The position numbers and the translations under genes are program-made. This document shows, piece after piece, positions 13,110 through 32,000 of a DNA stretch of 32,000 bases. The notes under the pieces are model-generated. The model was not told where the DNA came from. It saw only the letters and a program-made list of their open reading frames with translations, and made no database searches. Source of the stretch: Nostoc sp. PCC 7120 = FACHB-418 (lineage in GTDB: Bacteria; Cyanobacteriota; Cyanobacteriia; Cyanobacteriales; Nostocaceae); the NCBI RefSeq assembly GCF_000009705.1, contig NC_003272.1:2280001-2312000 (forward strand). The letters run 5' to 3'. How positions within the stretch are numbered: the stretch's first letter is position 1; each line of letters begins with the position of its first letter.

Positions 13110-14183
13110 ATGCGTAAACGAATTGGTATCCTCACCAGTGGCGGCGACTGTCCAGGGCTTAACTGCGTAATTCGCGCAGTTGTTAGCCATGCAACGCTTA
13201 CTTATGATTGGGAGGTATTGGGTATACCTTATGCCACTCAGGGTTTACGGGAGCGTCAAGCGATCGCTCTCAATATGCACGGTTGGGATTTGCGCGGTAT
13301 CGATCCTCTGCTGAATATGGGTGGTACGATTTTAGGCACAATTAATAAGGGTGATACCTTAGCCCATGTGGATGAAATGCTTGCCAGTTATCAGGCTTTG
13401 GCTTTGGATGCTTTGATTGTCATTGGCGGTGATGGTAGTCTGGGTATCCTCCATGAACTGGCTAGCCGAGGTAATTGGAATTTAGTGGCGATTCCCAAAA
13501 CTATAGATAATGATGTGGCTTTGACAGAACGCGCCGTGGGTTTTGATACGGCGGTGAATACAATTGTTGATGCCCTCAATCGCTTGACTTTTACGGCTGC
13601 AAGTCACGATCGCGTGATGATTGTCGAAGTTATGGGGCGCAGCGCCGGACATCTAGCCCTACACGCGGGTATTGCTGGCGGTGCAGATGTAATTTTAATC
13701 CCCGAAATTTCATACACAATTAGCGGTTTATGTCAACATATAGCTGAATTGCGCGATCGCTGGCAACGCAAATTTGCGATCGTTGTTGTTGCCGAAGGTG
13801 CGAAACTATGTCTGGAAGATGTGCAAGAAAATATTGCCTCTTCTTGTGCGCCTTCTAAATGCGGTCGCGGTCAATATATTGCGGATCAAATTGCTCAATG
13901 TAGTAAAAATCTCATCGATACCAGAGTTTCTGTATTGGGACACATTCAGCGTGGCGGTATCCCATCAGCTTTAGACCGTTTAACAGCAACAGTTTTTGGG
14001 AAAACAGCCGTTGATTTAATAGCTCAAGGTAAATTTGGGCAGATGGTAGCTTGGCAAAATGGCGAAGCTATCCCAGTACCCATTCAGGACGTTGTCGCTC
14101 AAAGTCCTTTACACGTAAATCCCCAAGGTTCTTTGGTACAGAGCGCTCGTTGTTTGGGTATTTATGTAGGAGAAAAAACATAA
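13110..14183 (+). CDS. pfkA: ATP-dependent 6-phosphofructokinase
   Basis: 357 aa from ATG 13110 (MRKRIGILTSGGDCPGLN). Motifs VIGGDGS, PKTIDND and MGRSAGHLA. The track start at 13068 is a TTG inside the heptamer array. Confidence 0.9.
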   Translation: MRKRIGILTSGGDCPGLNCVIRAVVSHATLTYDWEVLGIPYATQGLRERQAIALNMHGWDLRGIDPLLNMGGTILGTINKGDTLAHVDEMLASYQALALDALIVIGGDGSLGILHELASRGNWNLVAIPKTIDNDVALTERAVGFDTAVNTIVDALNRLTFTAASHDRVMIVEVMGRSAGHLALHAGIAGGADVILIPEISYTISGLCQHIAELRDRWQRKFAIVVVAEGAKLCLEDVQENIASSCAPSKCGRGQYIADQIAQCSKNLIDTRVSVLGHIQRGGIPSALDRLTATVFGKTAVDLIAQGKFGQMVAWQNGEAIPVPIQDVVAQSPLHVNPQGSLVQSARCLGIYVGEKT

Positions 14184-14201
14184 TTCTTCCCCCCATTTAC
14201 T

Positions 14202-17200
14202 CTAACCGCAACTTCTAAGTACGTGATGTAGGCTATTTAATAATTCCTTGGCTGTAAAAGGTTTAGGTAAAACTTGCTGCACACCGATCATGGCTGCTTG
14301 TGCCACTGTTTCCGTAGAATTGATCCCACTACTAGCAATAACTTGTACCTTTGAGTTCATTTTTTTCAAGGTGCGAATGGCTGTGATACCGTCCATTTCT
14401 GGCATCATCATATCCATGAGAACAGCACTAATACGATGTTTGTGTTGGGCATAAAGTGCGATCGCCTCAATACCATTACAGGCAGTCAGAATTTTATAGT
14501 TAAACTTTTCGAGAATCACCTTGGCAATTTCGCAAATTGGCGCTTCATCATCGACAACTAAAATTAATTCTCCATCGCCCGATGGTGTTTCTATCTCTTC
14601 TATCGTTAAATCTGGCGTTGCTGGAATTGCTGGCAAGAACACTTTAAATTGGCTACCTTGACCAACTTTGCTGGAAACCTTGACAAAACCCCCATGACTT
14701 TTGATAATTCCCAGCACGGTTGACAGTCCCAAACCTGTACCTACTCCCACCTCTTTTGTCGTAAAAAATGGCTCAAAAATTCTATTTAAGATTTCTGGAG
14801 ATATTCCTGCACCGGTATCAGTCACTGTCAGCTGAATGTAATTGCCAACTTGCGCCTCTAAAATCATGCTGGCATAGGTTTCATCAATAAAAATGTTGTC
14901 TGCTGTAACGTTGATTTTCCCACCATTGGGCATGGCATCACGGGCATTGACGACAAGATTCATCAACACTTGGTGTAATTGAGTAACATCCCCACAGACT
15001 GCCCACAGTACTTCGGGAAAGCTACTAGTAAATTCAATTGACTTGGGAAATGTCTGTTTACCAATCAGAATAATATCGGTAATTAAGTGTTTGAGTTGGA
15101 CTATTGTCCGTTCTCCTTTAAAACCGCGTGCAAACGATAGCACCTGCTTGACTAAACCTGCTCCGCGTCTGGCGTTGTTTTCCACAATCTCTAACAGGTG
15201 TTGGGAAGATGTACCGCCCGCCGTAGGTGTTCCTCCTTTATCTTCGGGAAATTTGACTTTCAGCAGTTGGGACGCTGCCAAAATGGGTGTCAAGATATTA
15301 TTCAAGTCGTGAGCAATACCACCTGCAAGGGTACCCAGACTCTCTAATCTTTGGGTGCGGAAAAACTGTTCTTCTAGTTGTTTTTTTTGGGTGATATCGG
15401 TATCAACAATTAAAATTGATTTGGGTAGCCCAGCTGCATCACGCATCAGTGTCCAACGGCTTTCCACAATAATTTCTTTGCCAGATTTAGTCAGTTTTTG
15501 CAACTCCCCCTGCCACAATCCCAACTCCATAACAACGTTGAGAGCTGCTTCATGCAGGTGCAATGAAGTTTCAGAATATAGTAGCTTTTGGGCATTACGG
15601 CCGATAGCTTCCTGTTGTGACCAACCATACAAGCGTTCTGCACCTTGATTCCAAAATAAGATATTGGTGTGTAAGTCTTTGACAAAAATGGCATCGGTGG
15701 CTATATCTAGTAAAGCTGCTTGCTCGCGGATTTTCTGCTCTGCTTGTTGGCGTAAGCGTAGTGCAGCTTGCTGTTCACTAATATCGGCAAAGGATGTAAC
15801 TACAGCATAAGGAACCGTTTCATTTTCCCGACACAAAGGCTGAGAATTAATCGAAATCCAGCTTATTTGTCCGTCCGGCTTGTAAACTCCCATGACCACA
15901 TTAGAGCAGGGTTTGCCTGTACGTAGCGTCTCCATTGCTGGATGCTGTTCACCAGGAAACGGGGAGCCATCTTCATGAATCGTCAGCCAACGCTCATCAA
16001 CACAGGTACGTTGTAATATTTGCTCTTTGCTTAACCCTAAAATTCTCTCGGCACTTGCATTACAAGCAATAATTTTGACCTTATCCTGCAAGATAATACC
16101 CTCTCTCATGGCTGTTACCACTGAGCGATAGAGTTCTTCACTTTCCCGTAGGGATGCCTCTGCTTGTTTGCGTTCGCTAATATCTCTAGTAGTGCCAATC
16201 ATCCTGATTGGTTTACCAGGTTTGTCATAGTAGACTTGACCTCTACTATTGAGCCAGTGAATACTACCATCCTTCCAGACAGTCCGATATTCGACGGTAA
16301 ATGGCATTCCTTGCTCAATACTGTTTTTGACAGACTGAGAGAAATTCTCTCGGTCTTGAGGATGGATTAATTGCAGGAAGTCTTCAGGACTAGGACATAA
16401 AGTTGTACTTGGCAGACCATACAGTAATCCCATATTGGCAGACCAGATGGTTTCATTGGTCAAAAGGTACCAATCCCAGATACCCATATTGGCAGCTTCC
16501 AAGGCTAAATTTAATCTTGCCTCACTCTGTCGTAGTGATTCTTCCGCCTGTCTGCATTCGGTAATATCTCTGCCTACTCCTTGAAACTCAACAACCTCGC
16601 CAATTGTATTTTTAATGCCGATAACATTCCATTGAAACCAACGTATACCACTGGGTGTTAATACAGGCTGCTCACTAATACTGATTTTATGGGGTGGGGA
16701 TTTGAGGGCTTGGAAATATTCTTTTGCTTGAGGGATTTCATCCTCAGGAAACATCCACTCAAATATTAGCTGACCAACTAACTCATCCATTGGCTTGCCA
16801 AAAATTCTGCAAGCTACTGGATTAACAAATGTCAGTCTCCCTAAATTATCAACACGCAAAATTACCTCAGTTTGTAGCTCAACTAACTGGCGATACAGTT
16901 GCTCACTTTGCTGTAATGCTTGTTTTGGCTGTTGAACCTCAACAATGTCTCGTTGCCAAACCTTCCTAAATCCCAGAAATTCGTCGTGATGCTCCAGCTC
17001 TTGGAAAGGATTACGAGATGGGTAGCGTAAAAATTCTATCTGTTGTGGTTTTTGTAAGGATTGCAGACAGCAAAAAGTTTCTAACTGATTCAATCCTTGC
17101 AACAGGCTAGCTGCACTCACAATCCCTATCAATTGCTCTCTATCGTTCAAAATTGGCAGATGACGAATTTGATGCTGATGTAATAAGGACAAAGCTGTAA

Positions 17201-19475: not shown

Positions 19476-19883
19476 ATGGTGCGGTTTTTTTTCACAGCAG
19501 TATTACTACTATTATTAGTGGGCTGTAATAATATTGGTTTATTGCCGACTAGCGAATTAGTGCAGAGAGCGATCGCACTCCAGCTAGAACAAACCCAAGA
19601 AAAACTTAATCAACAGCTAGATTTAAATTTCCAAGGCTTTGAAATTAAACACCTCAAGATTCGCCAAGAACAACCCCTGACAATTCAAAATCTGCCAGCC
19701 TTCCGCGTTTTGGGAACTTATGACTTAACTTTCCAGTTACCCAAGAGACAGTTAACCAAACTGCAACAACCCTTTGATGTTTACCTACAAATCCAGCAAG
19801 AAGGTAAAACTTGGCGATTGCTACTTCCAGATAAGACTAGTAAAGATACGGAACCAGTTTGGCATAGCTATCTCATCCCATAA
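19476..19883 (+). CDS. Putative lipoprotein (135 aa)
   Basis: ATG 19476 gives MVRFFFTAVLLLLLVGC with a lipobox-like LVGC. The track start at 19416 is a TTG extension. Confidence 0.55.
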   Translation: MVRFFFTAVLLLLLVGCNNIGLLPTSELVQRAIALQLEQTQEKLNQQLDLNFQGFEIKHLKIRQEQPLTIQNLPAFRVLGTYDLTFQLPKRQLTKLQQPFDVYLQIQQEGKTWRLLLPDKTSKDTEPVWHSYLIP

Positions 19884-20019
19884 ATCATATATGCAACTGG
19901 AAAAAGCATCACAGACTTTTCTGTATAAATCCTCCAGCATAGCCATGATGAAACTAATTCGTAATTTGTAATAGCCTGGCAAGACTATTACAAATTAGTC
20001 TTATTGGAGAAATGGCTAT

Positions 20020-20793
20020 ATGTATGTAAATTTTTTTATTAGTTCTATTGCCGGAATTGTCATTACAGTATTGCTAGCTTTTAGCGTATTGCAATGGTTT
20101 CATGTACCTGCGGGTAGCTTTCTGGATTGGGTAATTGGGGGGGCAAGTTTTTGGTGGTTGTTAGTCATTGTGACTGTACCTTGGAATATTCATTTTCAAG
20201 CTAAACAAGTTTTAGCTGAAGCAGCACAGTCCAGGGAAAAAGAAATTCCTGTGGATGAGCGACAAGTGCGATATGTCCAAAGTTTAGCCAAGCGATCGCT
20301 GTGGGTGGCTTTGGCTTTACACTTGTTTTCAGCTATTGGTCTTTATCTCCTCGCCGCCACAGGTATTAGTGCCGTAGGTTATATCAGTTCTGGCGCAGCT
20401 TTATTATTAACAATCCTCAGACCGGCAATTCGTGCTTATGAGTATATCTATGCGCGGCTAACAATGATTAGCCAAGAATGGAAATATCCCCGCGAAGATA
20501 TAGTAGAACTCCGTCATCGCTTTGTTGAATTAGAACAGAAAGTCCAAGTTTTGGATGATCAATTTAACTTAGAACAGCCCTATTCTTTAGTAGCCACACA
20601 ACAACGTTTTGGTGAGGAAACCCGCCGAGACTTAGCGAAAATCGCTGCCAATTTAGAAGAATTACGAGCTACAAATCAAACTGAACATGAGCGATTATCC
20701 AGAGAAGCCAGAAATGCGATCGCCCAGCTTTCTACTGACGGACAATTCCTCGATCATGTGCGAGAAATCATTCGCTTTTTTAAGACAGCTTGA
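20020..20793 (+). CDS. Membrane protein with C-terminal coiled-coil region (257 aa), function unknown
   Basis: Four hydrophobic segments in the N-terminal 150 aa, followed by a charged heptad-like C-terminus (ELRHRFVELEQKVQVLDDQ...). Confidence 0.7.
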   Translation: MYVNFFISSIAGIVITVLLAFSVLQWFHVPAGSFLDWVIGGASFWWLLVIVTVPWNIHFQAKQVLAEAAQSREKEIPVDERQVRYVQSLAKRSLWVALALHLFSAIGLYLLAATGISAVGYISSGAALLLTILRPAIRAYEYIYARLTMISQEWKYPREDIVELRHRFVELEQKVQVLDDQFNLEQPYSLVATQQRFGEETRRDLAKIAANLEELRATNQTEHERLSREARNAIAQLSTDGQFLDHVREIIRFFKTA

Positions 20794-20819
20794 GGCGAAA
20801 GAGGCGATCGCTCATACCA

Positions 20820-20911
20820 CAATACGGTTCAGAGAAATGTAGGTTGGGTGGAGCTATCGCTCCACCCAACCTACACTAGTTTTTATTTTTAGCCTTAACT
20901 GAACGATATTG
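20820..20911. mobile_element. 92-bp MITE-like insertion with target-site duplication
   Basis: 10-bp direct repeat GCTCATACCA at 20810..20819 and 20912..20921 abuts imperfect terminal inverted repeats CAATACGGTTCAG (20820..20832) and CTGAACGATATTG (20899..20911). Internal perfect 16-bp hairpin GTAGGTTGGGTGGAGC/GCTCCACCCAACCTAC (20839..20874). Confidence 0.6.
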
Positions 20912-20998
20912 GCTCATACCATTTCCCGAAAAATATGATATAAGTATAAACCCTGAAAGCTTTGCTGCATCATTGCTACCCATTCCCGATTACAATGC

Positions 20999-22639
20999 TT
21001 AATTGTTAATTTGTGTATTCTCAGGAAATTTTTCGTTTTTCTGTGACGGTGCTGGAATTTGACTATCAGTAGAGGAATTTTGCTTTACTTCCACTGTGGG
21101 AACTACCACAGAAGAATCTGAATTTTTTGGCTCTGCGGGTTGTACCGGCACAACTATAGAATTTGCTGGCGGCTCAACTGGTGTGGTGGAATTTTGAGTT
21201 GAGGACGGTGGACTAGTATCTGTAGTGTTGGCTGGTTTGGCTGTGCGAGATGAACGGATTTCTCGCAATTTTTCTACGAGGGATGGTGTGGAGGATGTAT
21301 TAGGTGACAGCCCTGGTTGTTCATAATTGCGGCGCTGTGATTCTCCTGTATTTGGTTGTGGTGATTGTTCTGAAGAATTGCTGTTGGGATTGGAAGATTC
21401 GCTTGGTTGGTTAGTTAGATTACGCCTGCGTCTTCTAGAAGGGGATACAGGTGTAGTTTCGCTTGCGGAATAATTTTGAGAGTTTTGTCTCGTATTATCT
21501 CGCTCTTGACTAGAATCAACTTGAGGTTTCCCTCCTACTGGTACCATTGGGCGTTCTTCAAACAGGGGTTTTGCCGACGGCTGTGTCCAAGAGCGGGAAA
21601 ACAGGCTGGTGGCACTAAATCCGGCGGCGGCAGCAACCACAGCTATGATGACACCCAGGAAGACTTGAGAAGTGCCAGACTTTTGAGCTATTAAGGCAAG
21701 ATTTTTCAGGGGTGATGGTTTTTTACCACTACCGGATGTTTTGGCACCAGAAAACTTTTCTTGCAGATGCACAGACAAATCAATGGTTGGCACTACATGA
21801 GTAGGTAATGCGTGAATTGGCAAATTTACGCCACTACCTGGTAGTAGTTGTAGCCATTCCGCAACCGTTGGTGGACGGAAGCGAGATTCTACGGCCATAC
21901 CCCGCATGACAGCTTGATTTACGGCTGCACTGAGGTGGGGTTGTAGTTCACGGGGGGCTGGCATTTGTTCGCGATCGCGCAATAATGCTGGTAAGGGGAC
22001 TTGTCCTGTTAACAGTGCATACAAAGTTGCCGCTAAACCATAAACATCGGTGGCGGGTGTGCGCGGTGCTTGAGTTAAATATTGTTCGATGGGGGCGTAG
22101 CCCTCAGATACTAGCCCTGTGTGAGTTTGACGCACACCGCTATTAAATTCACGGGCAATGCCAAAATCAATCAGCACTACCTCCTGTGTACCTTGACGGA
22201 GGATGATATTATCTGGTTTAACATCCCGGTGCAGCAAACCATTGTTGTGTACTACCTGCAATGCTGCCCCAATTTGGCGGATGTAATGAATTGCAGTTTC
22301 TTCTGGTAAAGGTATGGCCGGTAAAACAAAAGCATCTCCTAAGGTTTCTCCAGGGATATACTCCATTACCATGTAAGGTAATCCATCCTCAACAAAAAAA
22401 TCACTTACCCTGACAATATTAGGATGGATACAAGTGGCGAGTCTTCTGGCTTCATCTTGGAACTGACGCTCGAACTTTGCAAAATCAGGGTGTTGGCGTA
22501 GTCGTTCGTTGATGGTTTTCATCACTACCTCATGTCCTAAGTAATGATGAGTAGCCTTAAACGTAATGCCAAAGCCACCACGTCCTACTTCTTGGATGAG
22601 GGTGTATTTTCCACCCTGTAAAATTTTGCCTGCTAACAT
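20999..22639 (-). CDS. Ser/Thr protein kinase with one transmembrane segment and a long S/P/T/N-rich C-terminal tail
   Basis: GRGGFG P-loop, VVMK lysine, HRDVKPDNI catalytic loop, DFG, YAPIEQ. TM segment [16 protein letters not shown]. Low-complexity tail. Confidence 0.9.
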
Positions 22640-22928
22640 AGAGAGTCTTGAGTCCTGAGTCTTAATTCCTGACGAAGCAAATAACTACTAATTCCTAATT
22701 GTGAGGGACTGCCAAACAAAAAAGTCTGCCCATATATTGTATTCAGTAGTCAGATTTTTCTCACTTTTACCATCCAAAAGGCTCTTCGGTTAGCTCAAAC
22801 AAGAATTTTTGCAGAAAAATCTTACACCCTTCACATAAACACTTTCTTTGAGAAAACTCACCTTGATTAAATAGGTTGTCTAATTTTACTTTGTAATCAC
22901 AATAAATTTCAGGAGTCATGTAGCCCTA

Positions 22929-23669
22929 ATGTCTCAAAAGTCGTCTCAAAGCCATCTGTCTACTTCACAAAATCCTTACACAGACAACATCAATCGTTCA
23001 GATAAATGGCAACAAAGGGTAGCACAGGTAGCATATCGCTTTAACCAACAGTATCAAAATCAATCCTTAGAACTACCAGCAGAAGTACAGGAAATGCCGA
23101 TTTATCGAGAATGGATTTCTGGCATATTGGCAGGAAAGATTGCTTCTCCTTTCTGGGAAATGGCCCAACCCCAAAAAAATCAGCACTGTTTAGATATTGG
23201 TTGTGGAGTTAGTTTTTTGATTTATCCTTGGCGAGATTGGCAAGCATTTTTTTATGGGCAAGATGTAAGCAATGTAGCGCGAGATACCCTCAATTCTCGT
23301 GGTTCCCAGTTGAACTCCAAGTTATTCAAAGGCGTGGAATTAGGGGCAGCCCATCAGTTAAAATACACATTGTCTTATTTTGATCTAGCGATCGCTACAG
23401 GATTCAGTTGCTATTTTCCCCTGGAATATTGGACATCTGTGTTACAAGCCGTGAAGCGTGTACTCAAACCAGATGGACATTTTGTTTTTGATATCCTCAA
23501 CGCTGCACACCCTCAAGCTGAAGATTGGGCGGTGTTGGAAACTTACTTGGGCGCGGAAGTGTTTCTAGAACCTGTCACCGAGTGGGAAAAAATAATTAAC
23601 GCGGCTGGTGCTAAAGTAGTTGGACGACAACCAGGGGAGTTCTTTGATTTGTACAAGCTACGGTTTTAA
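22929..23669 (+). CDS. Class I SAM-dependent methyltransferase
   Basis: Motif I CLDIGCGVSF and post-I/II pattern LKPDGHFVFD. 246 aa. Confidence 0.75.
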   Translation: MSQKSSQSHLSTSQNPYTDNINRSDKWQQRVAQVAYRFNQQYQNQSLELPAEVQEMPIYREWISGILAGKIASPFWEMAQPQKNQHCLDIGCGVSFLIYPWRDWQAFFYGQDVSNVARDTLNSRGSQLNSKLFKGVELGAAHQLKYTLSYFDLAIATGFSCYFPLEYWTSVLQAVKRVLKPDGHFVFDILNAAHPQAEDWAVLETYLGAEVFLEPVTEWEKIINAAGAKVVGRQPGEFFDLYKLRF

Positions 23670-23740
23670 GATTGGTTGGCGGGAAGAGATGAGGGGATGA
23701 GGGAAATGAGAAAGAAACATCTCAAAACTCTTGCTGTCTC

Positions 23741-23778
23741 CCCCAATCCCCAGTCCCCAGTCCCCAATCCCCAGTCCC
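23741..23778. repeat. STRR1-type heptamer array (CCCCAGT/CCCCAAT, 5.4 copies)
   Basis: CCCCAAT CCCCAGT CCCCAGT CCCCAAT CCCCAGT CCC. Preceded at 23677..23710 by a G-rich GATGAGG-type segment. Confidence 0.85.
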
Positions 23779-23805
23779 TAATACTGAAATAAGGATACTA
23801 TACTG

Positions 23806-24813
23806 ATGTCGGTGGGAAGAATACGCTACGATTGGCACAAAGCAGAGATTCGCGCAGTATATGATACGCCATTGCTAGAGTTGATTTATCAAGCTGCTAG
23901 TGTACATCGGCAGTTTCATAATCCTAAACAAATACAAGTATGTAAGCTGATATCGATTAAAACAGGTGCGTGTCCTGAAGATTGTAGTTACTGCGCCCAG
24001 TCTTCTCGTTATCAAACTGAAGTCAAACCCCAAGCACTCCTTGATAAGCAAACGGTTGTGGAAATTGCCCAAAACGCTAAACAAAAGGGTGTCAGCCGTG
24101 TCTGTATGGGTGCGGCTTGGCGGGAGGTGCGAGATAATTCTCAATTTGACCGAGTTCTAGAAATGGTCAAAGATGTTACAGACATGGGTTTAGAAGTGTG
24201 CTGTACTCTGGGAATGCTGACATCTGAGCAAGCCAAGAAGTTGGAGACAGCAGGATTGTATGCTTATAACCATAACTTGGATACTTCCTCTGACTACTAC
24301 AGCACTATTATTACCACGAGAACTTATGGCGATCGCCTAAACACTATCGAAAACGTCCGACAGACTAATGTTACCGTATGTTCTGGCGGCATTCTCGGTT
24401 TAGGTGAAAGCATAGATGACCGTGTGGCAATGTTACAAACCTTAGCCACCCTCAATCCTCATCCAGAATCCGTACCAATTAATATTCTCTCCCAAGTAGA
24501 AGGCACACCTCTAGAAGATCAACCAGATGTACCTGTTTGGGATGTAGTCAGAATGATTGCAACTGCACGTATAGTTATGCCCACATCGGATGTGCGTTTA
24601 AGTGCTGGTAGGGCGAGACTTTCTCAAGTGGAACAAGCCTTTTGTTTTATGGCAGGAGCAAATTCCATCTTTTCCAGCGACGATAATAAAATGCTGACGG
24701 TGACAACACCTTGTCCAGATTACGATGCTGATCAGGAAATGCTCAACCTACTCGGCTTAGAAATGCGTCCTCCGTCCCAAAGACCACAACCTGTAGTCAT
24801 GGGTAATTCATAA
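23806..24813 (+). CDS. bioB: Biotin synthase
   Basis: Radical-SAM motif [11 protein letters not shown], plus YNHNLDTS and [10 protein letters not shown]. 335 aa. Confidence 0.95.
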
Positions 24814-24820
24814 TCGCTTC

Positions 24821-24860
24821 AGATTCCCGACTTCTTGAAGAAGTTGGGAATCTAGTTTTT
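24821..24860 (+). terminator. Rho-independent terminator after bioB
   Basis: AGATTCCCGACTTCTT / AAGAAGTTGGGAATCT long stem (one G-T pair) at 24821..24853, followed by AGTTTTT. Confidence 0.65.
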
Positions 24861-24864
24861 CACA

Positions 24865-24960
24865 CTACAGTATCTTCGCAGAGCGTAAACCAAACAGCAG
24901 ACCAGCAGCTATGCCAGTGAACAAAGCCAAAAAGCCGATATAAGCTACTATTGCCAACAT
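24865..24960 (-). CDS. petL: Cytochrome b6-f complex subunit 6 (PetL), 31 aa
   Basis: Minus-strand ATG 24960 to TAG 24867..24865 gives [31 protein letters not shown], with GGAGAA SD upstream. The single TM helix, length and the Y-I-x-F-x-A-L-F-x-G-I-A ... S-x-K pattern match cyanobacterial PetL. Too short for the ORF track. Confidence 0.75.
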
Positions 24961-25007
24961 TTATTTTTCTCCACAATATTCTACTAACTCTATTGAATCA
25001 TTAAATT

Positions 25008-25108
25008 TTGGTCACTGGTCAAAAGAGGCAGGGGGGCAGGGCAGGGCAGGGGAGCAGGGGAGGCAGGGGGAGAACTTACTCCAAGATTTTCGCCCAATCC
25101 CCAGTCCC
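25008..25108. repeat. Composite repeat spacer: TTGGTCA-type heptamers, a GGCAGGG-type G-rich array, then STRR1 remnant
   Basis: TTGGTCA CTGGTCA (25008..25021). GAGGCAGGGGGGCAGGGCAGGGCAGGGGAGCAGGGGAGGCAGGGGGAG (25025..25072). CCCAATCCCCAGTCCC (25093..25108). Confidence 0.7.
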
Positions 25109-25185
25109 TAAGAAAATCTGGCGTAAATGCTAATCTGGAACTAACTAGAAGACTAATATTTTGGTTCCAGTTTCAGGACGGAACA

Positions 25186-25788
25186 ATGACAAAAACTGAC
25201 TTATCCCCGACTCTTGCTGTCAATATTCCACCTACACTAACGCTGACAGTCTCCCACGAACAATTTGTACAGTTAGCACTGGCTAACAGAGATTTACAAT
25301 TAGAACGAACTGCTACGGGTGAGTTAATTGTTATGCCTCCAACTGGGAGCGATACAGGGTGTAGAAATTCGGATATTAACGCCCAACTATGGTTATGGAA
25401 CCGCCAAGCTAAGTTAGGAGTGGTTTTTGACTCTTCAAGCGGTTTTCATCTTCCCAACGGTAGCGCGCTCTCTCCTGATGCGTCCTGGATACGTCAAGAC
25501 CGATGGAATGCCCTAAATATAGAACAACAAGAGACTTTTGCCCCGATATGTCCTGATTTTGTGCTGGAACTACGTTCTAAGAATGACTCTATAGAAAAGT
25601 TACGCGCCAAGATAAGAGAATACATCGACAATGGCGCTCGTTTAGGTTGGTTAATTGACCGCAAAAATCGACAAGTAGAAGTTTATCGCCCAGGTCAAGA
25701 TGTGGAAATCCTTAATCATCCTGTCAACTTGTCAGGGGAAAATGTCTTACCGGGGTTTGTGTTGGACTTAACTGAAGTTTGGAAATAA
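25186..25788 (+). CDS. Uma2-family (DUF820) putative restriction-endonuclease-like protein
   Basis: 200 aa with ELIVMPPTG, SPDASW, PDFVLELRS and REYIDNGARLGWLID segments, characteristic of the family that is greatly expanded in cyanobacteria. Confidence 0.8.
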   Translation: MTKTDLSPTLAVNIPPTLTLTVSHEQFVQLALANRDLQLERTATGELIVMPPTGSDTGCRNSDINAQLWLWNRQAKLGVVFDSSSGFHLPNGSALSPDASWIRQDRWNALNIEQQETFAPICPDFVLELRSKNDSIEKLRAKIREYIDNGARLGWLIDRKNRQVEVYRPGQDVEILNHPVNLSGENVLPGFVLDLTEVWK

Positions 25789-25859
25789 AGATATGTCATC
25801 CCATCTCCTCCCCAGAATAGGGTAAAATACAGCCCACGGCGCTTGTTGGGGTTTGGGTA

Positions 25860-26951
25860 ATGACTTCTGTAATTAATGTGAATCTACCAACGCAGTCTTA
25901 TGAGATTGCGATCGCACCTGCAAGTTTAGATCAGATTGGTCAAAGCTTGGCTGGGTTAAAACTGGGCAAGAAAGTATTACTGGTTTCTAATCCCACGATT
26001 TTTAAGCATTTCGGCAAAGTTGCTGTTGATTCCTTAGAAGCTGCTGGATTTCAAGTAGCAAGTTATTCTTTGCCAGCCGGGGAACGCTATAAAACCCTTA
26101 ACTCTATTCAAAAACTATACGATATAGCCCTAGAAAATCGCCTAGAACGCTCCTCCACAATGGTGGCTTTGGGGGGAGGGGTAATTGGTGATATGACTGG
26201 CTTTGCCGCCGCTACTTGGCTACGGGGGATTAATGTGGTGCAAGTACCTACCACACTCTTAGCAATGGTAGATTCGGCTATTGGTGGTAAGACAGGTGTG
26301 AATCATCCCCACGGGAAAAACTTGATTGGTGCGTTCCATCAGCCGCGATTCGTGTTAATTGATCCCCAAGTATTAAAAACCTTGCCTGTACGTGAATTTC
26401 GCGCAGGAATGGCGGAGGTAATTAAATATGGCGTGATTTGGGATGCAGAATTATTCAACCAGTTGGAACAGAGTAAGCGTCTCGACCAACTGCGCTACAT
26501 CAAACCAGAACTGGTGGATGCTATCTTAACTCGTTCTTGCCAAGCTAAAGCTGATGTTGTCGGCAAAGATGAGAAAGAAGGTGGACTGAGGGCGATTTTG
26601 AATTACGGACACACTGTTGGTCATGCGGTGGAAAGCTTAACTAACTATCGGCTACTCAAACATGGTGAAGCAGTAGGTATCGGTATGGTAGCGGCTGGGC
26701 AAATCGCTGTAAATTTAGAACTGTGGCAACAAGCAGATGCAGACCGTCAAAATGCCTTAATTGAAAAAGCGGGTTTACCGACAAAGTTACCAGTGGGATT
26801 AGATATTGAAGGGATTATTGAGGCATTGCAATTAGATAAAAAAGTCAAAGATGGTAAAGTACGGTTTGTTTTACCAACTCAAATTGGTGTAGTGACAGTT
26901 ACTGATGAGGTGACATCAGATCACATTCGGCAAGTTTTACAGCAGATGTAA
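25860..26951 (+). CDS. aroB: 3-dehydroquinate synthase
   Basis: [46 protein letters not shown] and [12 protein letters not shown] motifs. 363 aa. Confidence 0.95.
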
Positions 26952-27469
26952 ATTAATTACTAAATTCTGCCAAAATGGCAAATTTTCAGTAGTGGAATCC
27001 TATACATTAAATATAGCTACTCAAATAGAGGTTGTTGATACAATCAACAATTATCTAATTATGAAACCTACAAAACTGAGTGCTATTGCTGAAGCACTTA
27101 GTGTTTGGGGAATTGAATAAATCCTACAGCAAGACGGACAAGCTAACTATTACTAACGGTTCTTTTTTCGAGAAAGTTGAGCAAGGATTAAGATTGGTTT
27201 GCTGGCACCTACTAATCTTAACTTTCATGCTCTATATCGAGTTCTCATGTGGTGGTGAGGACTTCGGGAAACTTTCTATACTGGGAATGGTATTGCTTGA
27301 ACCATACCAAAAGTAGCAAGACAAAAGAATAAAAGTGGTGGTTTGACTGTTGTCGTAGCTGGTAGAACTTATAGTTCTTGTCCTTTTTAAAATTTAGGAA
27401 TCCTCGTCCTACCAGATAGGATTACCTCTGCTAGATAAATTTGTAATTTATACAGCAAATCTTAATACT

Positions 27470-27508
27470 GCTGGAAGCTAACCCGATTAATTAGCCTCCA
27501 GCTTTTTT
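27470..27508 (+). terminator. Strong orphan rho-independent terminator in the aroB-parvulin spacer
   Basis: GCTGGAAGCTAA (27470..27481), 9-nt loop, TTAGCCTCCAGC (27491..27502, one mismatch), then TTTTTT (27503..27508). Confidence 0.65.
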
Positions 27509-27769
27509 ATGTGTTAAGAAGGGGGGGAGAAGATAAATTCTGACTAATGACTATTAACTTATAGCAGTTTTCATTTGCATGAGGTACAAATTCACTTGCT
27601 TTGAGGCAGGAGGCAGAAGAATAATTTTTATATTTAGTTCTCCAGTTGTGTACCTCATTTAGTCACAACCTGCTGTATATCTTGCACCACTTGCTTATTG
27701 CTAAAATCATCAAGCCAAAAAGCCTTTCATAAGTCCAGTATTCAATATAGTCACTTTCTAATTACATCA

Positions 27770-28498
27770 ATGAGTGATTTAACCAAAGTATTTATTGCAC
27801 CTGAGGAAATTGTCAATTTTCTCAAAAAAAATATGCAGTTGAAAGAGGTATATCAAAAAATCTTATTTCAACGGTTGATTTTGCAGGTGGCTGAGGCTAG
27901 GGGAATCACCGTGACAACGGAAGAAATTGAGGCTGAGGCTAACCGCCAGCGTCGGGAAAAGCGTTTAGAGAAAGCCGCAGATACTATGGCGTGGTTAGCA
28001 GATCAGTTGGCTTCCCCAGAGGATTGGGAAATGGGTATACGCGATCGCTTATTATCTCAAAAGTTAGCTAATTTTTTATTCGCTGATAAAGTAGAAGCTT
28101 TTTTTATTCAAAATCAACTGGAGTTTGAGCAAGTTAGTCTCTATCAAATTATTGTCGATTCGGAAAAACTCGCTCAAGAAATTTACTACCAAATTGAAGA
28201 TGAGGAAATTAGTTTCTATGAGGCTGCATATTTATATGATGTTGATGCTGTTCGTAGGCAAAGATGCGGTTACGAAGGTAAGGTTTATCGATTTTCTCTC
28301 CCTGTAAATGTAGCCACAGTTATCTTTAGAACATCTCCTAAACAGTTAATAAGTCCCCTACAAACTGAGCAAGGTTATCACCTATTTATGGTAGAGGAAT
28401 TTATACCTGCTGAATTAACGGGGGAAAGATATCAAGAAATTCTCAATAATATGTTTAACCAATGGTTGATTACTGAACTAAATAAGATTCTAAATTAA
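27770..28498 (+). CDS. PpiC/parvulin-type peptidyl-prolyl isomerase-like protein (242 aa)
   Basis: ATG 27770 (MSDLTKVF...). SurA-N-like helical N-terminal half. C-terminal parvulin pattern GYEGKVYRFSLPVNVATVIF...ISPLQTEQGYHLFMVEE. The track start at 27698 is a TTG extension. Confidence 0.7.
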   Translation: MSDLTKVFIAPEEIVNFLKKNMQLKEVYQKILFQRLILQVAEARGITVTTEEIEAEANRQRREKRLEKAADTMAWLADQLASPEDWEMGIRDRLLSQKLANFLFADKVEAFFIQNQLEFEQVSLYQIIVDSEKLAQEIYYQIEDEEISFYEAAYLYDVDAVRRQRCGYEGKVYRFSLPVNVATVIFRTSPKQLISPLQTEQGYHLFMVEEFIPAELTGERYQEILNNMFNQWLITELNKILN

Positions 28499-28667
28499 TC
28501 TGTAGAAAATCAATTACAAGAATATTGAAAACTATTCTTGGAAGCCAAATATATTTCATTAGAATATAAATAATCAAGTTTTACATTTTCTGTTGAGAGA
28601 GTACCTAATTTCAAATGTTATTCTGTGACATAATTATAACTGATATAATTTATTTGCTTGGCTTTCT

Positions 28668-28683
28668 TGTAAAGATATATACA
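28668..28683. promoter_or_regulatory. NtcA-type box TGTA-N8-TACA
   Basis: TGTAAAGATATATACA fits the GTA-N8-TAC consensus exactly. Candidate -10 elements lie 16 or 28 nt downstream rather than the usual ~22, and one chance hit is plausible in 1.3 kb of AT-rich DNA. Confidence 0.2.
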
Positions 28684-29835
28684 CCTAAAAAAGGAAATTA
28701 TTTTTGTTGGTATAAAAATATTTTTATCAGTAGTTATGTTATTGTAAATTTAATCAAATTTATTGTATCTTTACTACTTAATAAGTGTAGTTATTGTCCA
28801 ATACAAGGACTTTTCGGAAATCAAATATGAATCCGATATATTTCCTGCTCAAGGTAGATGTATGTCTACTTATTATCTTTATAATTATTATCTTGAACTA
28901 GAAGAAATCCACTAAAAAATGCAGTTATTCAGTTTGATTTTTTGTCCGCAAACTAAAAGCAAAACTAATCTAATATTCAAACTTTTATCGTGTTCAATAA
29001 GTAATAGTTATTCTTTGCATGGTTAATATAAAGATTTGATGAAGTTTTAAGTTTTCCAACGAAAACTATTGACTATATGATGAAAAATTCTTAAAAGAAT
29101 AACAGTGGTGTAAAACACTAAATTAAATCACTGTCACTGTTAAGAGAATTTAGTCTTTTAATTAACTCCAGGCACATCAGATTCTACTGCTGAAAACAAT
29201 TATTGTTAGGTGGATGTAAATAGCATTGTTTACACCTATACCTAGCTCTAGCTGCATATGTTTTTACTCCTATGTATAACAGGCTTTAACCTCTTATTAG
29301 TCTCTAAAAAAACTAAGTTTAAAGATTAAGAGGCTTACCTCTGAACTAAAAGTGCAAAGTTCAGTAACATCCTAAAAATCAGACTTGAGTATTAGACCTT
29401 AGAAAAGTATCGGCAAAAAAATACCAGTATTACACCAAGCTTCAGAACAAATGCCGATTTATTCCAGTTAACCAGTGCAAAACTAATTCGTTCTAGGTGT
29501 TTTACCAGATAATGCTGTTTATCAGGAGAGACGACATATATGCTATCAGCATATTTTGTTAGGTTTGCTGACTACTACTGGATAAGGAATTTTACTACGC
29601 TACGCGTGTCAGTTGTTAGTTGTGGATCGTTAGCAGCGAGGTGGGAGTCTCGATAGTACAACTGCTATGGCTACTAGATTCTGAGTACTAAATGTTGATA
29701 AATAGCCGCCTTAATCTTCTCAGATAAGGGGGTAGACACTCATCATCGGATATTGATGAGAGATTAATTTTGCAACTAATTTTTTAGTTGTAATACACAA
29801 GTTTACCGCAGTTTCACATTAGACAGCAACTGGTA

Positions 29836-30426
29836 ATGATTATGTCACACAGTTTTAATCAAGAAACAGTTTTTGCTACTTATGAAAACCAAGAGAGCAA
29901 GTTTTTAACACCTTTCCAACGGAAGGCTTTACTCAAACATTTACAAAACAATTTACAGCCAGAATATCGCCGCCGCATTGAAATAATGTTAATGGCTGAT
30001 ATTGGTAAATCTCAAACTCAAATTTGTGAAATATTAGGTTGTTCCCAAGAAATGGCTCGTTATTGGATTGGTTTAGCCGAGGCTGGTTTAGCACATAAAT
30101 GGAATGAACGTCCCATAGGTAGACCGAAGATTGTTAATACTCAATATCTGGAAAGATTAAGAGAGTTAGTCAGCAATAGTCCTCGTGATTATGGGTATGC
30201 TTTTACTCACTGGACGGCTCAATGGTTAAGCAAACATTTAGCCTCGGAATTAGGCATTGAAATTAGCGATCGCCACATTAATCGCCTGCTTAAACAAATG
30301 GGACTTTCCACTAAACGCAAAGGTTCCCAACCAAAAGAAACTAATTCTCTAGAGGATGCTGCGATTACAATTGGCGACTTAAAAACCACATCTGAACCTA
30401 GTCTTAATTGGTCTTTTAATTCTTAA
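29836..30426 (+). CDS. Stand-alone helix-turn-helix protein resembling the N-terminal DNA-binding half of IS630/Tc1-type transposases (196 aa)
   Basis: Pattern RRRIEIMLMADIGKSQTQICEILGCSQEMARYW...RPIGRPK...FTHWTAQWLSKHLASELGIEISDRHINRLLKQMGLSTKR (HTH plus winged HTH). No DDE domain follows. Contains a HIP1 site at 30266..30273. Confidence 0.75.
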   Translation: MIMSHSFNQETVFATYENQESKFLTPFQRKALLKHLQNNLQPEYRRRIEIMLMADIGKSQTQICEILGCSQEMARYWIGLAEAGLAHKWNERPIGRPKIVNTQYLERLRELVSNSPRDYGYAFTHWTAQWLSKHLASELGIEISDRHINRLLKQMGLSTKRKGSQPKETNSLEDAAITIGDLKTTSEPSLNWSFNS

Positions 30427-30429
30427 TTA

Positions 30430-30547
30430 GGGGTACAGGGGTATAGGGGTATAGGGGTACAGGGGTACAGGGATACAGGGGTATAGGGGTATAGAGGTAC
30501 AAATATTTGAAACCCTTACACCCTTACACCCTTACACCCTCACACCC
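30430..30547. repeat. Octamer tandem arrays: (GGGGTAYA)x9 then (CCCTTACA)x4
   Basis: Nine 8-nt units occupy 30430..30501 (two are degenerate: GGGATACA, GAGGTACA). After an 11-nt AT spacer come CCCTTACA x3 plus CCCTCACA plus CCC at 30513..30547. The whole block lies between the HTH stop and the exporter ATG. Confidence 0.9.
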
Positions 30548-30608
30548 AGCCTCAAAAGAGTAAGTCCTATTAAATTTTGAATTCCCCCTTGGGGTTGGAG
30601 GTGGGAAA

Positions 30609-32000
30609 ATGCCATCAGGGTTTTCCCGGCAATATTTAGCGGAACAACTCACTCATATATTGGGTGAGTCTTTGTCAGAACGGGAGTTAGAAAAGTGCAT
30701 CCAAGGTTTAGAAATTATTGAACCACCAATCGCCAAACAATTTTGGCAAGCGGCGACAGCATCGGCGGGGATTTATATTGTTCTTGGGGGTAAAGTCAGG
30801 CTATTAGATGACGCTCACAACTTAATTACGACCGTTTCAACTGGTGCATCCTTTGGGGAATTGACTCTGTTTCCTGATGCAGACTTTATTCCTTATGTCG
30901 CTAGAGCTTCGGTGAACTTGAAATTGGGTTATCTTCCCCAGACGATTTTACAAGATTTGATGGGCGAAAATTCCAGTGTTGGCGATCGCCTGAAAAAACA
31001 CGCCGAAACTTGGGATTTGTTGGTGTTGTGTTGTCAAAACTCTTTGTTGCCGCAAAATTCCTCAGTTGAGGAGATAATCAAAGCCTTAGCTTTATTTGAG
31101 CGACATAGTTTAGATATTGGTTCCCTACCATCACAGATATTTCCAGATACCAAGCTGTGGATATTGCGTCGCGGAGAATTGGAAAATAATAACGGACGCA
31201 CATTCCAACCCGGAACCATCTCCCAATATTCAAAGCAAATCAATTGGCAAGTCACACAATCAGCTATTGTGTATATTCTCAAGCAGGAGAATTGGCAAGT
31301 AGCACAGGAGTATTGGCCGGAGTTGGGGACTGGAGATTGGGGACTGGGGACTGGGGAAAACGCTTCTCAGTCGCCTTTACCTAGTCTTCGTTCTCCGGTT
31401 GTGAGGGAGCCGGAACCGCAGCCACAGCCAAAACAACGCCGAGCTTATTTCCCTAGTCCTCGTCTTCAGGTTGGTCATTGGTGGGGACGACTGATTAAGC
31501 GCTATCCCATATTTGAGCAACAAAGTGCGGCTGATTGTGGTGCGGCTTGTTTGGTGATGATTAGTCGCTATTGGGGTAAGCGTTTGAGTGTGAACCGACT
31601 GCGGGATTTAACTAACGTCAATCGCAGTGGTGCATCGTTGAAGGGTTTAACCGCCGCCGCCGAAACCATTGGTTTTACTACTCGTCCGGTAAAAGCTAGC
31701 TTTGATAAATTAGCACAACAACCCTTACCAGCGATCGCCCATTGGGAGGGTAAACACTATATTGTAGTTTATGAGATTAACAAAAAACAGGTAATTGTCG
31801 GTGATCCGGCGATCGGTCAACGTAACTTGAGTATTGCTGAATTTAAAGCGGGTTGGACTGGTTACGCCTTGTTGTTGCAACCGACAACCGAGCTGAAAGA
31901 AAACGAAGAAGCAAATACATCATTTTGGCAATTATTTGAGTTAGTCAAACCCCACACACGGGTATTAGTAGAGGTATTCAGCGCTTCGGTATTGATTCAG
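30609..32000 (+). CDS. N-terminal 464 codons of a HetC-type ABC exporter: cNMP-binding-like domain(s) plus C39 (double-glycine) peptidase domain; ORF continues beyond the window
   Basis: ATG 30609 is the first start after an in-frame TAA at 30561, with GGAGGTGGG SD upstream, and the frame has no stop to 32000. cNMP-like cassette GASFGELTLF...VARAS. C39 motifs QQSAADCGAACLVMISRYWG (Cys codon 31536..31538), AIAHWEGKHYIVVYE and GDPAIG. Not in the ORF track because it has no stop inside the window. Confidence 0.85.
   Translation, partial: MPSGFSRQYLAEQLTHILGESLSERELEKCIQGLEIIEPPIAKQFWQAATASAGIYIVLGGKVRLLDDAHNLITTVSTGASFGELTLFPDADFIPYVARASVNLKLGYLPQTILQDLMGENSSVGDRLKKHAETWDLLVLCCQNSLLPQNSSVEEIIKALALFERHSLDIGSLPSQIFPDTKLWILRRGELENNNGRTFQPGTISQYSKQINWQVTQSAIVYILKQENWQVAQEYWPELGTGDWGLGTGENASQSPLPSLRSPVVREPEPQPQPKQRRAYFPSPRLQVGHWWGRLIKRYPIFEQQSAADCGAACLVMISRYWGKRLSVNRLRDLTNVNRSGASLKGLTAAAETIGFTTRPVKASFDKLAQQPLPAIAHWEGKHYIVVYEINKKQVIVGDPAIGQRNLSIAEFKAGWTGYALLLQPTTELKENEEANTSFWQLFELVKPHTRVLVEVFSASVLIQ
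31325..31356. repeat. STRR1 heptamer array (GGGGACT, reverse complement of CCCCAGT) inside the exporter coding sequence
   Basis: GGGGACT GGAGATT GGGGACT GGGGACT GGGG, translated in frame as LGTGDWGLGTGE. Same family as the intergenic arrays at 23741..23778 and 25093..25108. Confidence 0.85.

Follow-up and report, generated by a model that had tools for sequence, protein, structure and literature searches.

We examined a stretch of 32,000 nucleotides (nt) from the genome of Nostoc (Anabaena) sp. PCC 7120 (contig NC_003272.1, positions 2,280,001 to 2,312,000 of the forward strand), referred to below as the window, and in particular the plus-strand open reading frame (ORF) that begins at position 30609 and is still open at the window end. 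This ORF encodes the N-terminal 464 residues of Alr1927, an ATP-binding cassette (ABC) exporter that carries its own C39 peptidase. [quoted passage not shown] An earlier note on this DNA, made from the sequence alone, had seen in the locus a regulated signalling-peptide export module with the architecture of HetC, a heterocyst differentiation exporter, rather than a bacteriocin cluster. Its gene-level observations held up; its view of the substrate and of the cluster type did not.

The frame reported in the earlier note is real, as it runs for 464 stop-free codons up to position 32000 and contains a highly significant C39 domain. Two public contigs continue past the window end: L001, which corresponds to window positions 19836-32000 with one mismatch (99.99% identity; the window-equivalent position is the L001 coordinate plus 19,835), and L002, which is 100% identical. 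On both contigs the complete gene encodes 1011 amino acids (aa), 547 codons of it beyond the window, and adds the ABC_membrane and ABC_tran domains. It is alr1927, because its numbering is consecutive with that of its neighbours alr1928, alr1929 and asl1930, and the proteins encoded past the window are exact PCC 7120 entries (BAB73627-BAB73634), including Alr1929 and the UniProt 'HetP-like commitment protein Asl1930'. A paper from 2025 likewise names Alr1927 a C39 ABC transporter, 31.9% identical to PteB.

The C39 double-glycine (GG) peptidase domain occupies residues 299-427 (31503-31889; Pfam Peptidase_C39, E 1.8e-42). The Cys, His and Asp positions that had appeared intact to the eye are confirmed by alignment to PCAT1, ComA and LahT150, in which C310 (codon 31536-31538), H383 (31755-31757) and D399 (31803-31805) fall on C21, H99 and D115 of PCAT1 (4ry2), and the oxyanion Gln is kept as Q304 (31518-31520). 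In the motif AIAHWEGKHY, the catalytic residue is the second His. All four residues are invariant among 18 homologues. The fold agrees as well, since Foldseek superposes the C39 part on ComA and LahT150 with target-normalised template modelling (TM) scores of 0.85-0.87 and a root-mean-square deviation of 1.3-2.0 A. Sequence identity to PCAT1, ComA and LahT150 is 32-34%, and Alr1927 differs from all three in having about 300 extra N-terminal residues and in being of the Gram-negative type with an HlyD adaptor.

The first transmembrane helix of the ABC body starts within the window (31923-32000), and the gene continues beyond it. Alr1927 can be aligned over its whole length with both HlyB (E 1.1e-150) and PCAT1 (E 1.4e-136), and its Walker B motif, LLLDE, ends in E934. 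A C39 domain with its catalytic set, a C-terminal type-1 exporter membrane domain with an ABC ATPase, and GG-leader genes nearby are what characterise a peptidase-containing ABC transporter (PCAT). By its sequence features, Alr1927 is such a PCAT of the 'long type', with predicted tandem cyclic-nucleotide-binding-like (CNB, or CAP_ED) domains, the C39 peptidase, a six-helix membrane domain and an ATPase, in that order. This is the HetC-type domain architecture proposed in the earlier note.

The first CNB-like domain spans residues 1-145 (30609-31043), a region defined by Pfam, by alignment and by a confident AlphaFold2 model (predicted local distance difference test, pLDDT, about 90). The Pfam cNMP_binding match itself, at residues 52-120, is barely significant, scoring 27.8 bits where the gathering score is 27.5. 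As had been noticed, the domain has a near-canonical phosphate-binding-cassette-like motif, made of FGE (residues 82-84; 30852-30860) and RAS (residues 99-101; 30903-30911). In the 18-homologue alignment F82, A100 and S101 are invariant, and G83 and R99 nearly so. The second, degenerate copy that had also been suspected lies at residues 153-240 (31065-31328). No Pfam family matches it, even at E<=1; structure prediction alone supports it as a CNB-like domain. In the AlphaFold2 model (mean pLDDT 78.7), the well-predicted residues 1-145 are followed by a beta-rich domain at 153-240 (pLDDT of its blocks 80-93), a linker and the C39 domain, and the best Foldseek matches of residues ~1-240 are tandem CNB-A/B proteins (PKG, PKA-R; 245-270 aligned columns, E ~1e-12). 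The linker, residues 245-297 (31341-31499), is rich in Gly, Trp, Pro and Gln, predicted to be disordered (pLDDT <50), poorly conserved and variable in length among homologues.

The candidate substrates of this exporter are encoded beyond the window. An array of small precursor genes (CDS10 and asl1933-38) lies on the opposite strand, its first gene 5.8 kb past the alr1927 stop codon; on L001 these ORFs with GG-ending leaders run from 19656 onward on the minus strand, with at least three of them within 19656-20591. A strict regular expression for GG leaders missed even true precursors and was replaced by a leader hidden Markov model (HMM) built from the precursors of the cluster family. The model recovers the three L001 precursors, which served as positive controls (E 6.5e-21, 1.3e-12 and 2.3e-5), and finds no GG-leader ORF anywhere in the 32-kb window (best E 3.5). 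The earlier statement that the exporter has no visible substrate gene is therefore correct for the window, which stops 7.5 kb short of the array, and wrong for the cluster. A conventional GG-leader precursor gene immediately downstream had been named in the earlier note as evidence that would speak against its reading; the array, beside a kinase/lyase pair, is in substance just that.

Each precursor consists of a leader of about 36 aa ending in GG, with the consensus MA.I.L.EL...GSELFQDSESFLNEL.D.D..SI.GG, and a core of about 40 aa that ends in ...AIGHI.YLAKS[FY]S.. The cores are partly hydrophobic and are free of Cys in 93 aligned precursors. No gene for a LanC-like cyclase or a cysteine decarboxylase was seen in L001. 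Because the cores lack Cys and neither of these genes was seen, this is not a lanthipeptide cluster, and judging from its genes the product would be at most a dehydrated linear peptide.

Between the exporter and the precursors lie five further genes. On the plus strand, alr1928 (L001 13900-15438) encodes an HlyD-type adaptor (TIGR01843, 212.6 bits, above the cut-off of 208.65) and alr1929 (L001 15770-16546) a parvulin-like protein, parvulin-2, whose best match is TIGR04500 at 70 bits, below the cut-off. On the minus strand follow asl1930 (L001 16701-16982), which encodes a HetP-like protein of 93 aa (HetP_family, 102 bits), the gene for the HopA1-like lyase All1931 (L001 17132-18214; Pfam HopA1, E 2.6e-62) and the gene for the APH-like kinase All1932 (L001 18341-19513; Pfam APH, E 6e-9; best NCBIfam match LxmK, E 1.1e-20). 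All1932 retains the kinase motifs HNDLKLNN (HxDxxxxN) and IDWE. The transmembrane and ABC body, the HlyD-type gene and the hetP-like gene that the earlier note had predicted downstream of the window were thus all found.

These genes suggest a pathway for the peptides. The precursor array would be translated into GG-ending leaders of about 36 aa joined to the Cys-free cores, on which All1932 would phosphorylate Ser and Thr residues and All1931 would eliminate the phosphate to leave dehydro-amino acids, as their homology to LanK and LanY suggests. The peptides may be bound or chaperoned by two cytoplasmic parvulin-like proteins with degenerate active sites, Alr1929 and a second one encoded upstream of the exporter. 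Alr1927 would then cut after the GG motif with its C39 domain and export the core through its ABC body, and Alr1928 together with an outer-membrane channel would take the core out of the cell. By analogy with HetC, whose domain binds ppGpp/GTP and not cAMP, the tandem CNB domains probably gate this activity on a nucleotide-type ligand. A likely regulator of the cluster is a helix-turn-helix (HTH) protein encoded directly upstream of alr1927, which may act at a promoter-like element described below.

The cluster is conserved. We scanned species-representative genomes with the N-terminal region of the exporter and analysed the best 80 loci, in which this region is fully spanned at 54-89% identity and which come essentially all from heterocyst-forming cyanobacteria of the Nostocales type. 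The conserved plus-strand order is [parvulin-1], HTH, PCAT, HlyD and parvulin-2, the upstream parvulin-like gene (parvulin-1) being variably present; the opposite strand carries [hetP-like], HopA1, the kinase gene and between 1 and 6 genes for precursors. The linkage of the exporter with HTH and parvulin genes that had been proposed for the Nostocales is borne out by this order. Precursors occur at 34 of the 36 loci that have the HopA1 and kinase pair, 125 genes altogether, and at the two exceptional loci the pair sits at the extreme edge of the fetched DNA.

A sub-clade of the exporters, 64-68% identical, keeps HlyD and parvulin-2; at its loci (exporter at ~10001 in L058, L059, L065-L069, L072-L076, L079, L085 and L086) there is no HTH gene, no HopA1/kinase pair and no precursor within 10 kb. 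These loci come mostly from Nostoc lichen cyanobionts and Fischerella-type strains and probably represent the 'group I' of Wang et al. Some genomes hold both exporter types.

The organisation of the alr1927 locus is that of a cluster type already described. Wang et al. (2011; PMC3140520) reported 'long-type' transporters with an extra CAP_ED domain, together with HlyD and a SurA-like rotamase, in their groups I, II and VI of bacteriocin clusters; group II adds modification genes, precursor arrays and, often, adjacent HetP-like genes. Their Table S3 lists under group II the PCC 7120 genes asl1930, a newly called CDS10 of 73 aa and asl1933-38, with asl1933 at 2,319,911-2,320,144, a position from which the window maps to 2,280,001-2,312,000 of the chromosome. 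The alr1927 locus has every defining part of this group, namely the long-type transporter, HlyD, the rotamase, modification genes, precursors and a HetP-like gene. Given the precursors and the tailoring pair in a conserved cluster, the statement that this is not a bacteriocin cluster was wrong in terms of organisation. The 2011 paper does not describe HopA1 and kinase as a dehydratase, the HTH gene or an adjacency to hetC-hetP; otherwise we see no substantive difference.

Eyles et al. (2021; PMC8153245) found pairs of HopA1 and phosphotransferase genes in 183 clusters of cyanobacteria. The 570 'Family 1A' peptides encoded there have a conserved double-glycine leader and variable cores and occur in cyanobacteria only. 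In the alr1927 cluster, similarly, the APH-like kinase and the HopA1-like lyase adjoin several non-identical precursors with a shared GG leader. The kinase/lyase pair LanK/LanY of class V lanthipeptides dehydrates Ser and Thr in vitro (PMC9486802); the alr1927 cluster resembles it in having a kinase and a HopA1-like lyase beside precursors, and differs in its Cys-free cores, in having no cyclase or decarboxylase gene and in a kinase that scores below the family cut-off. As the architecture, the cluster type and the precursors are already in the literature, the finding as such is known: re-finding an annotated gene of a model organism in a cluster type described in 2011 and 2021 adds little. 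The cluster is, at the same time, a tractable case of a Cys-free RiPP putatively tailored by a kinase/lyase pair.

Several observations weigh against the assignment of Alr1927 to a dedicated pathway of this kind. Given the opposite strand and the 5.8-kb distance, it is conserved synteny and not a shared operon that pairs the precursors with the exporter. The gene asl1933 was reported to be unexpressed after nitrogen step-down, which may mean that the cluster is silent under standard conditions, and our literature search found no detected product for the alr1927 cluster. The role of the kinase and lyase is uncertain, since the cores are Cys-free and no Ser or Thr is conserved across Family 1A (PMC8153245); in addition, All1932 falls far under the LxmK cut-off (74 against 315 bits). 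The cNMP_binding match in Pfam, as given above, barely clears its threshold. Finally, other PCATs of PCC 7120 (Alr7014, Alr1201, Alr5147 and HetC) could cross-process the precursors. Of Alr1927 and its paralogue HetC, it is the latter whose proteolytic and transport activity has been demonstrated (PMC10986499).

The peptide may act as a toxin, a signal or a matrix component. A matrix role is suggested by PteB of Synechococcus elongatus PCC 7942, a C39 ABC transporter whose exported EbfG peptides carry a GG motif and are required to form biofilms. Both systems combine a C39 ABC exporter from a cyanobacterium with a neighbouring HlyD gene and small GG-motif peptides, PCC 7120 has four listed PteB homologues of which Alr1927 is one, and cores of about 40 aa that are Cys-free and partly hydrophobic might suit extracellular matrix or biofilm components, possibly amyloid-forming ones, rather than toxins or signals. 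However, none of the four is more distant from PteB than Alr1927, the authors of the PteB-homologue paper favour other clusters (asr5139-alr5148, alr7014 and alr1201), and the biofilm role has been demonstrated only in the EbfG system, whose precursors are unrelated and for which no kinase/lyase pair or HetP-like gene has been described. We therefore consider a matrix function of this kind very improbable.

The likeness to HetC (Alr2817) requires a closer look. The two proteins have the same domain order and an identical Cys-His spacing of 73 residues, and both genes have a hetP-family gene nearby, which could suggest that the gene in the window is hetC or its orthologue and that the locus bears directly on the HetC substrate. 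This has next to no chance of being right. Alr1927 and HetC share 38.7% identity across 968 aligned residues, and in a neighbour-joining tree HetC and its orthologues (62-72% identity) form a clade apart from that of Alr1927. The neighbours of alr1927 are alr1928, alr1929 and asl1930, not alr2818, and many genomes carry hetC and alr1927-type genes side by side. We reached the true hetC-hetP locus of the sister strain T. variabilis (L091) through HetP homologues and validated it with published primers: the PCC 7120 hetC/hetP primers match L091 exactly or with 1-2 mismatches and are missing from L001. All of this indicates that alr1927 is a paralogue of hetC.

The two loci also differ in what surrounds the exporter. 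In L091, hetC encodes 1042 aa (with C345 and E968) and is followed by a co-oriented long hetP (about 150-160 aa); alr1927 is followed by the HlyD gene alr1928, and its hetP-family neighbour asl1930 is short and on the opposite strand. Whereas Alr1927 is adjoined by an HlyD adaptor, parvulin-like proteins, tailoring enzymes and GG precursors, the 10 kb around the true hetC locus contain neither these genes (HlyD, parvulin, tailoring enzymes, precursors) nor an HTH gene, in agreement with the 2024 HetC paper, which saw no GG-leader gene near hetC (PMC10986499). The cassette motif reads FGA in HetC and FGE...RAS in Alr1927. In HetC, the peptidase activity and the essential Cys, His and Walker B Glu were published in 2024, and its cNMP-type domain binds ppGpp, GTP and GDP and does not respond to cAMP (PMC10986499). 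HetC is required for heterocyst maturation; our literature search found no phenotype for alr1927. The comparison of the locus with the situation of HetC thus fails on the separate clade, the low identity and the precursors in the cluster. In L091 we also noted a gene with PatA_N and response-regulator domains (PatA-like; 13551-14924), about 3 kb 3' of hetP on the opposite strand and beside a baeRF-family gene.

In other genomes the two modules adjoin. At 13 loci (upstream of ~10000 in L010, L012, L019, L020, L024, L029, L032, L037, L039, L042, L043, L070 and L081), a HetC orthologue (55-71% identity in tblastn) and a long hetP lie directly 5' of parvulin-1, the HTH gene and the Alr1927-type exporter, and at 8 further loci a long hetP takes that place. 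The genera concerned are Anabaena, Nodularia, Cylindrospermum, Halotia, Fortiea, Umezakia, Nostoc and Heteroscytonema. A single block of about 20 kb in at least 13 genomes thereby holds the genes for both HetC and its paralogue, a hetP-family gene for each of them, and GG-leader arrays; in PCC 7120 and its close relatives the hetC-hetP and alr1927 modules are separate. We did not find this adjacency in our literature search, which did not cover Videau et al. 2016 on HetP homologues. Together with the conservation of the HTH gene under purifying selection and the promoter-like gap element, both described below, it may be a new point. The HetC substrate has been sought since 1997, and the GG arrays of the genomes in which hetC-hetP lies a few kilobases 5' of the paralogous exporter offer a short list of candidates for the purified HetC peptidase domain.

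This arrangement bears on the proposal of the earlier note that the locus exports a signalling peptide in a regulated way, as a module linked with heterocyst development and functionally like HetC, whose peptide would be a developmental signal and not a bacteriocin. We regard this as unlikely. It gains from the HetP-like Asl1930 encoded in the cluster, which the literature describes as delaying commitment, from the asl1933 peptide family being among the genes specific to heterocyst-forming cyanobacteria, from the Nostocales type of the best 80 loci, from the 13 genomes with hetC-hetP directly 5' of the module and the 8 others with a long hetP there, and from an N-terminal sensor domain that resembles that of HetC, which is needed for differentiation. 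On the other hand, its premise of an absent substrate gene is false, given the GG precursors in the cluster, and several precursors together with tailoring enzymes and an HlyD export adaptor make up the layout of a typical RiPP cluster, while hetC has no adjacent adaptor gene. The reported silence of asl1933 after nitrogen step-down, the lack of a reported developmental phenotype for alr1927 in the literature searched and the separation of the module from hetC in PCC 7120 also speak against it. A bolder version would make hetC-hetP and alr1927-asl1930 the halves of one ancestral module, with tailored peptides of the Asl1933 type as substrates or signals for both HetC and Alr1927, in developmental signalling and not as bacteriocins; we hold this to be rather improbable. 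A dedicated RiPP export pump is the reading of Alr1927 that we retain.

Upstream of alr1927, the window contains the HTH gene, an AT-rich gap and the first parvulin-like gene, all three recognised in the earlier note and confirmed here. The stand-alone HTH protein (196 aa; 29836-30426, plus strand; probably alr1926) matches HTH_32, HTH_28 and HTH_33, and covers positions 1-124 of the 299 of the IS630 transposase model NF033545 (77 bits, cut-off 100). No DDE catalytic part was found in the HTH gene at any locus examined. The gene stands immediately 5' of the exporter in 59 of the 80 loci, its ORF is 191-212 aa long throughout 60 loci, and its ratio of nonsynonymous to synonymous substitution rates (dN/dS) is 0.09-0.19 in 14 comparisons, which corresponds to purifying selection. 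From these sequence features, the protein is best described as a domesticated DNA-binding protein derived from the N-terminus of an IS630-type transposase. We rejected its interpretation as a transposase or as debris of an insertion sequence on the grounds of its uniform length, its missing DDE part and its dN/dS values.

Between the HTH gene and alr1927 lies a spacer of 182 nt that carries two arrays of octamer tandem repeats detected with Tandem Repeats Finder, AGGGGTAC in 9 copies (30429-30501) and ACCCTTAC in 4.5 copies (30512-30547). These arrays resemble the short tandem repeats of cyanobacteria. The spacer was also considered as a hairpin, and folds no better than shuffled sequences (z -0.48).

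The first parvulin-like protein (parvulin-1) has 242 aa and starts at ATG 27770 (27770-28498, plus strand; Pfam Rotamase, E 9.8e-9); the mechanical ORF begins at TTG 27698, and public contigs annotate the start at ATG 27770. It gives weak SurA_N matches, and its match to TIGR04500, 'PpiC-related peptide maturation', reaches 37.7 bits, under the cut-off of 180. Orthologues with 60-88% identity lie upstream of the HTH gene in 16 of the 80 loci. Although the parvulin domain is recognised in both parvulin-like proteins, only the second catalytic His is retained in each. Parvulin-1 has Gln (QIIV) in place of the first catalytic His and CGYEG in place of GGDLG, as read from the sequence; in Alr1929 the corresponding residues are Glu and GGYQG. 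An isomerase activity of either protein is therefore doubtful, and with two of the usual catalytic positions lost, a binding or chaperone role is likelier; the pair may be peptide-binding proteins instead of prolyl isomerases. No signal peptide was found on either protein, so parvulin-1 is probably cytoplasmic.

The gap between parvulin-1 and the HTH gene (28499-29835) has a GC content of 0.215-0.40 in 200-nt windows. Two blocks of DNA in it, at ~29025-29144 and ~29420-29580, are conserved 5' of the HTH gene in more than 20 genera (blastn). The first block contains a promoter-like core about 740 nt 5' of the HTH start codon, which consists of TTGACT (29069-29074), a 17-nt spacer and TAAAAG (29092-29097). 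An alignment of 20 loci from many genera shows no variation in TTGACT or, within the -10-like hexamer, in the T of position 1 and the A of positions 2 and 4, and we infer a promoter function for this element. Directly 3' of it, an inverted repeat, ACAGTG...CACTGT (29102-29134), is kept across loci and could be an operator or a 5' hairpin. Its 5-bp stem occurs in the 20 loci with only one-sided changes of the G-U type, and the consensus energy is -2.4 kcal/mol (RNAalifold); given this weak RNA-structure support, a promoter plus operator is the likelier reading. The gap elements match no Rfam family, and with a stem of only 5 bp and one-sided changes we set aside the possibility that they form a structured RNA.

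The second block, with TAGGTGTTTTACCAGAAACTGCTGTTTA...ACAACAGCTATGCT.GC.GCATATTTTGTCAGGTTTGCT at 29495-29585, lies about 300 nt 5' of the HTH gene and overlaps an ORF of 38 codons (29540-29656). We considered this ORF as a coding leader peptide and rejected it, as its third codon positions are equally conserved and the ATG is lost at some loci. No consensus RNA structure was detected in this block.

Further upstream, the cluster in PCC 7120 is preceded by housekeeping genes: petL, a gene for a Uma2-family endonuclease and the gene for 3-dehydroquinate synthase (window 25030-25125 region, L001 5030-5125, minus strand, and window 25186-26951). These genes mark the left border of the cluster in PCC 7120; other genomes have hetC-hetP in that place.

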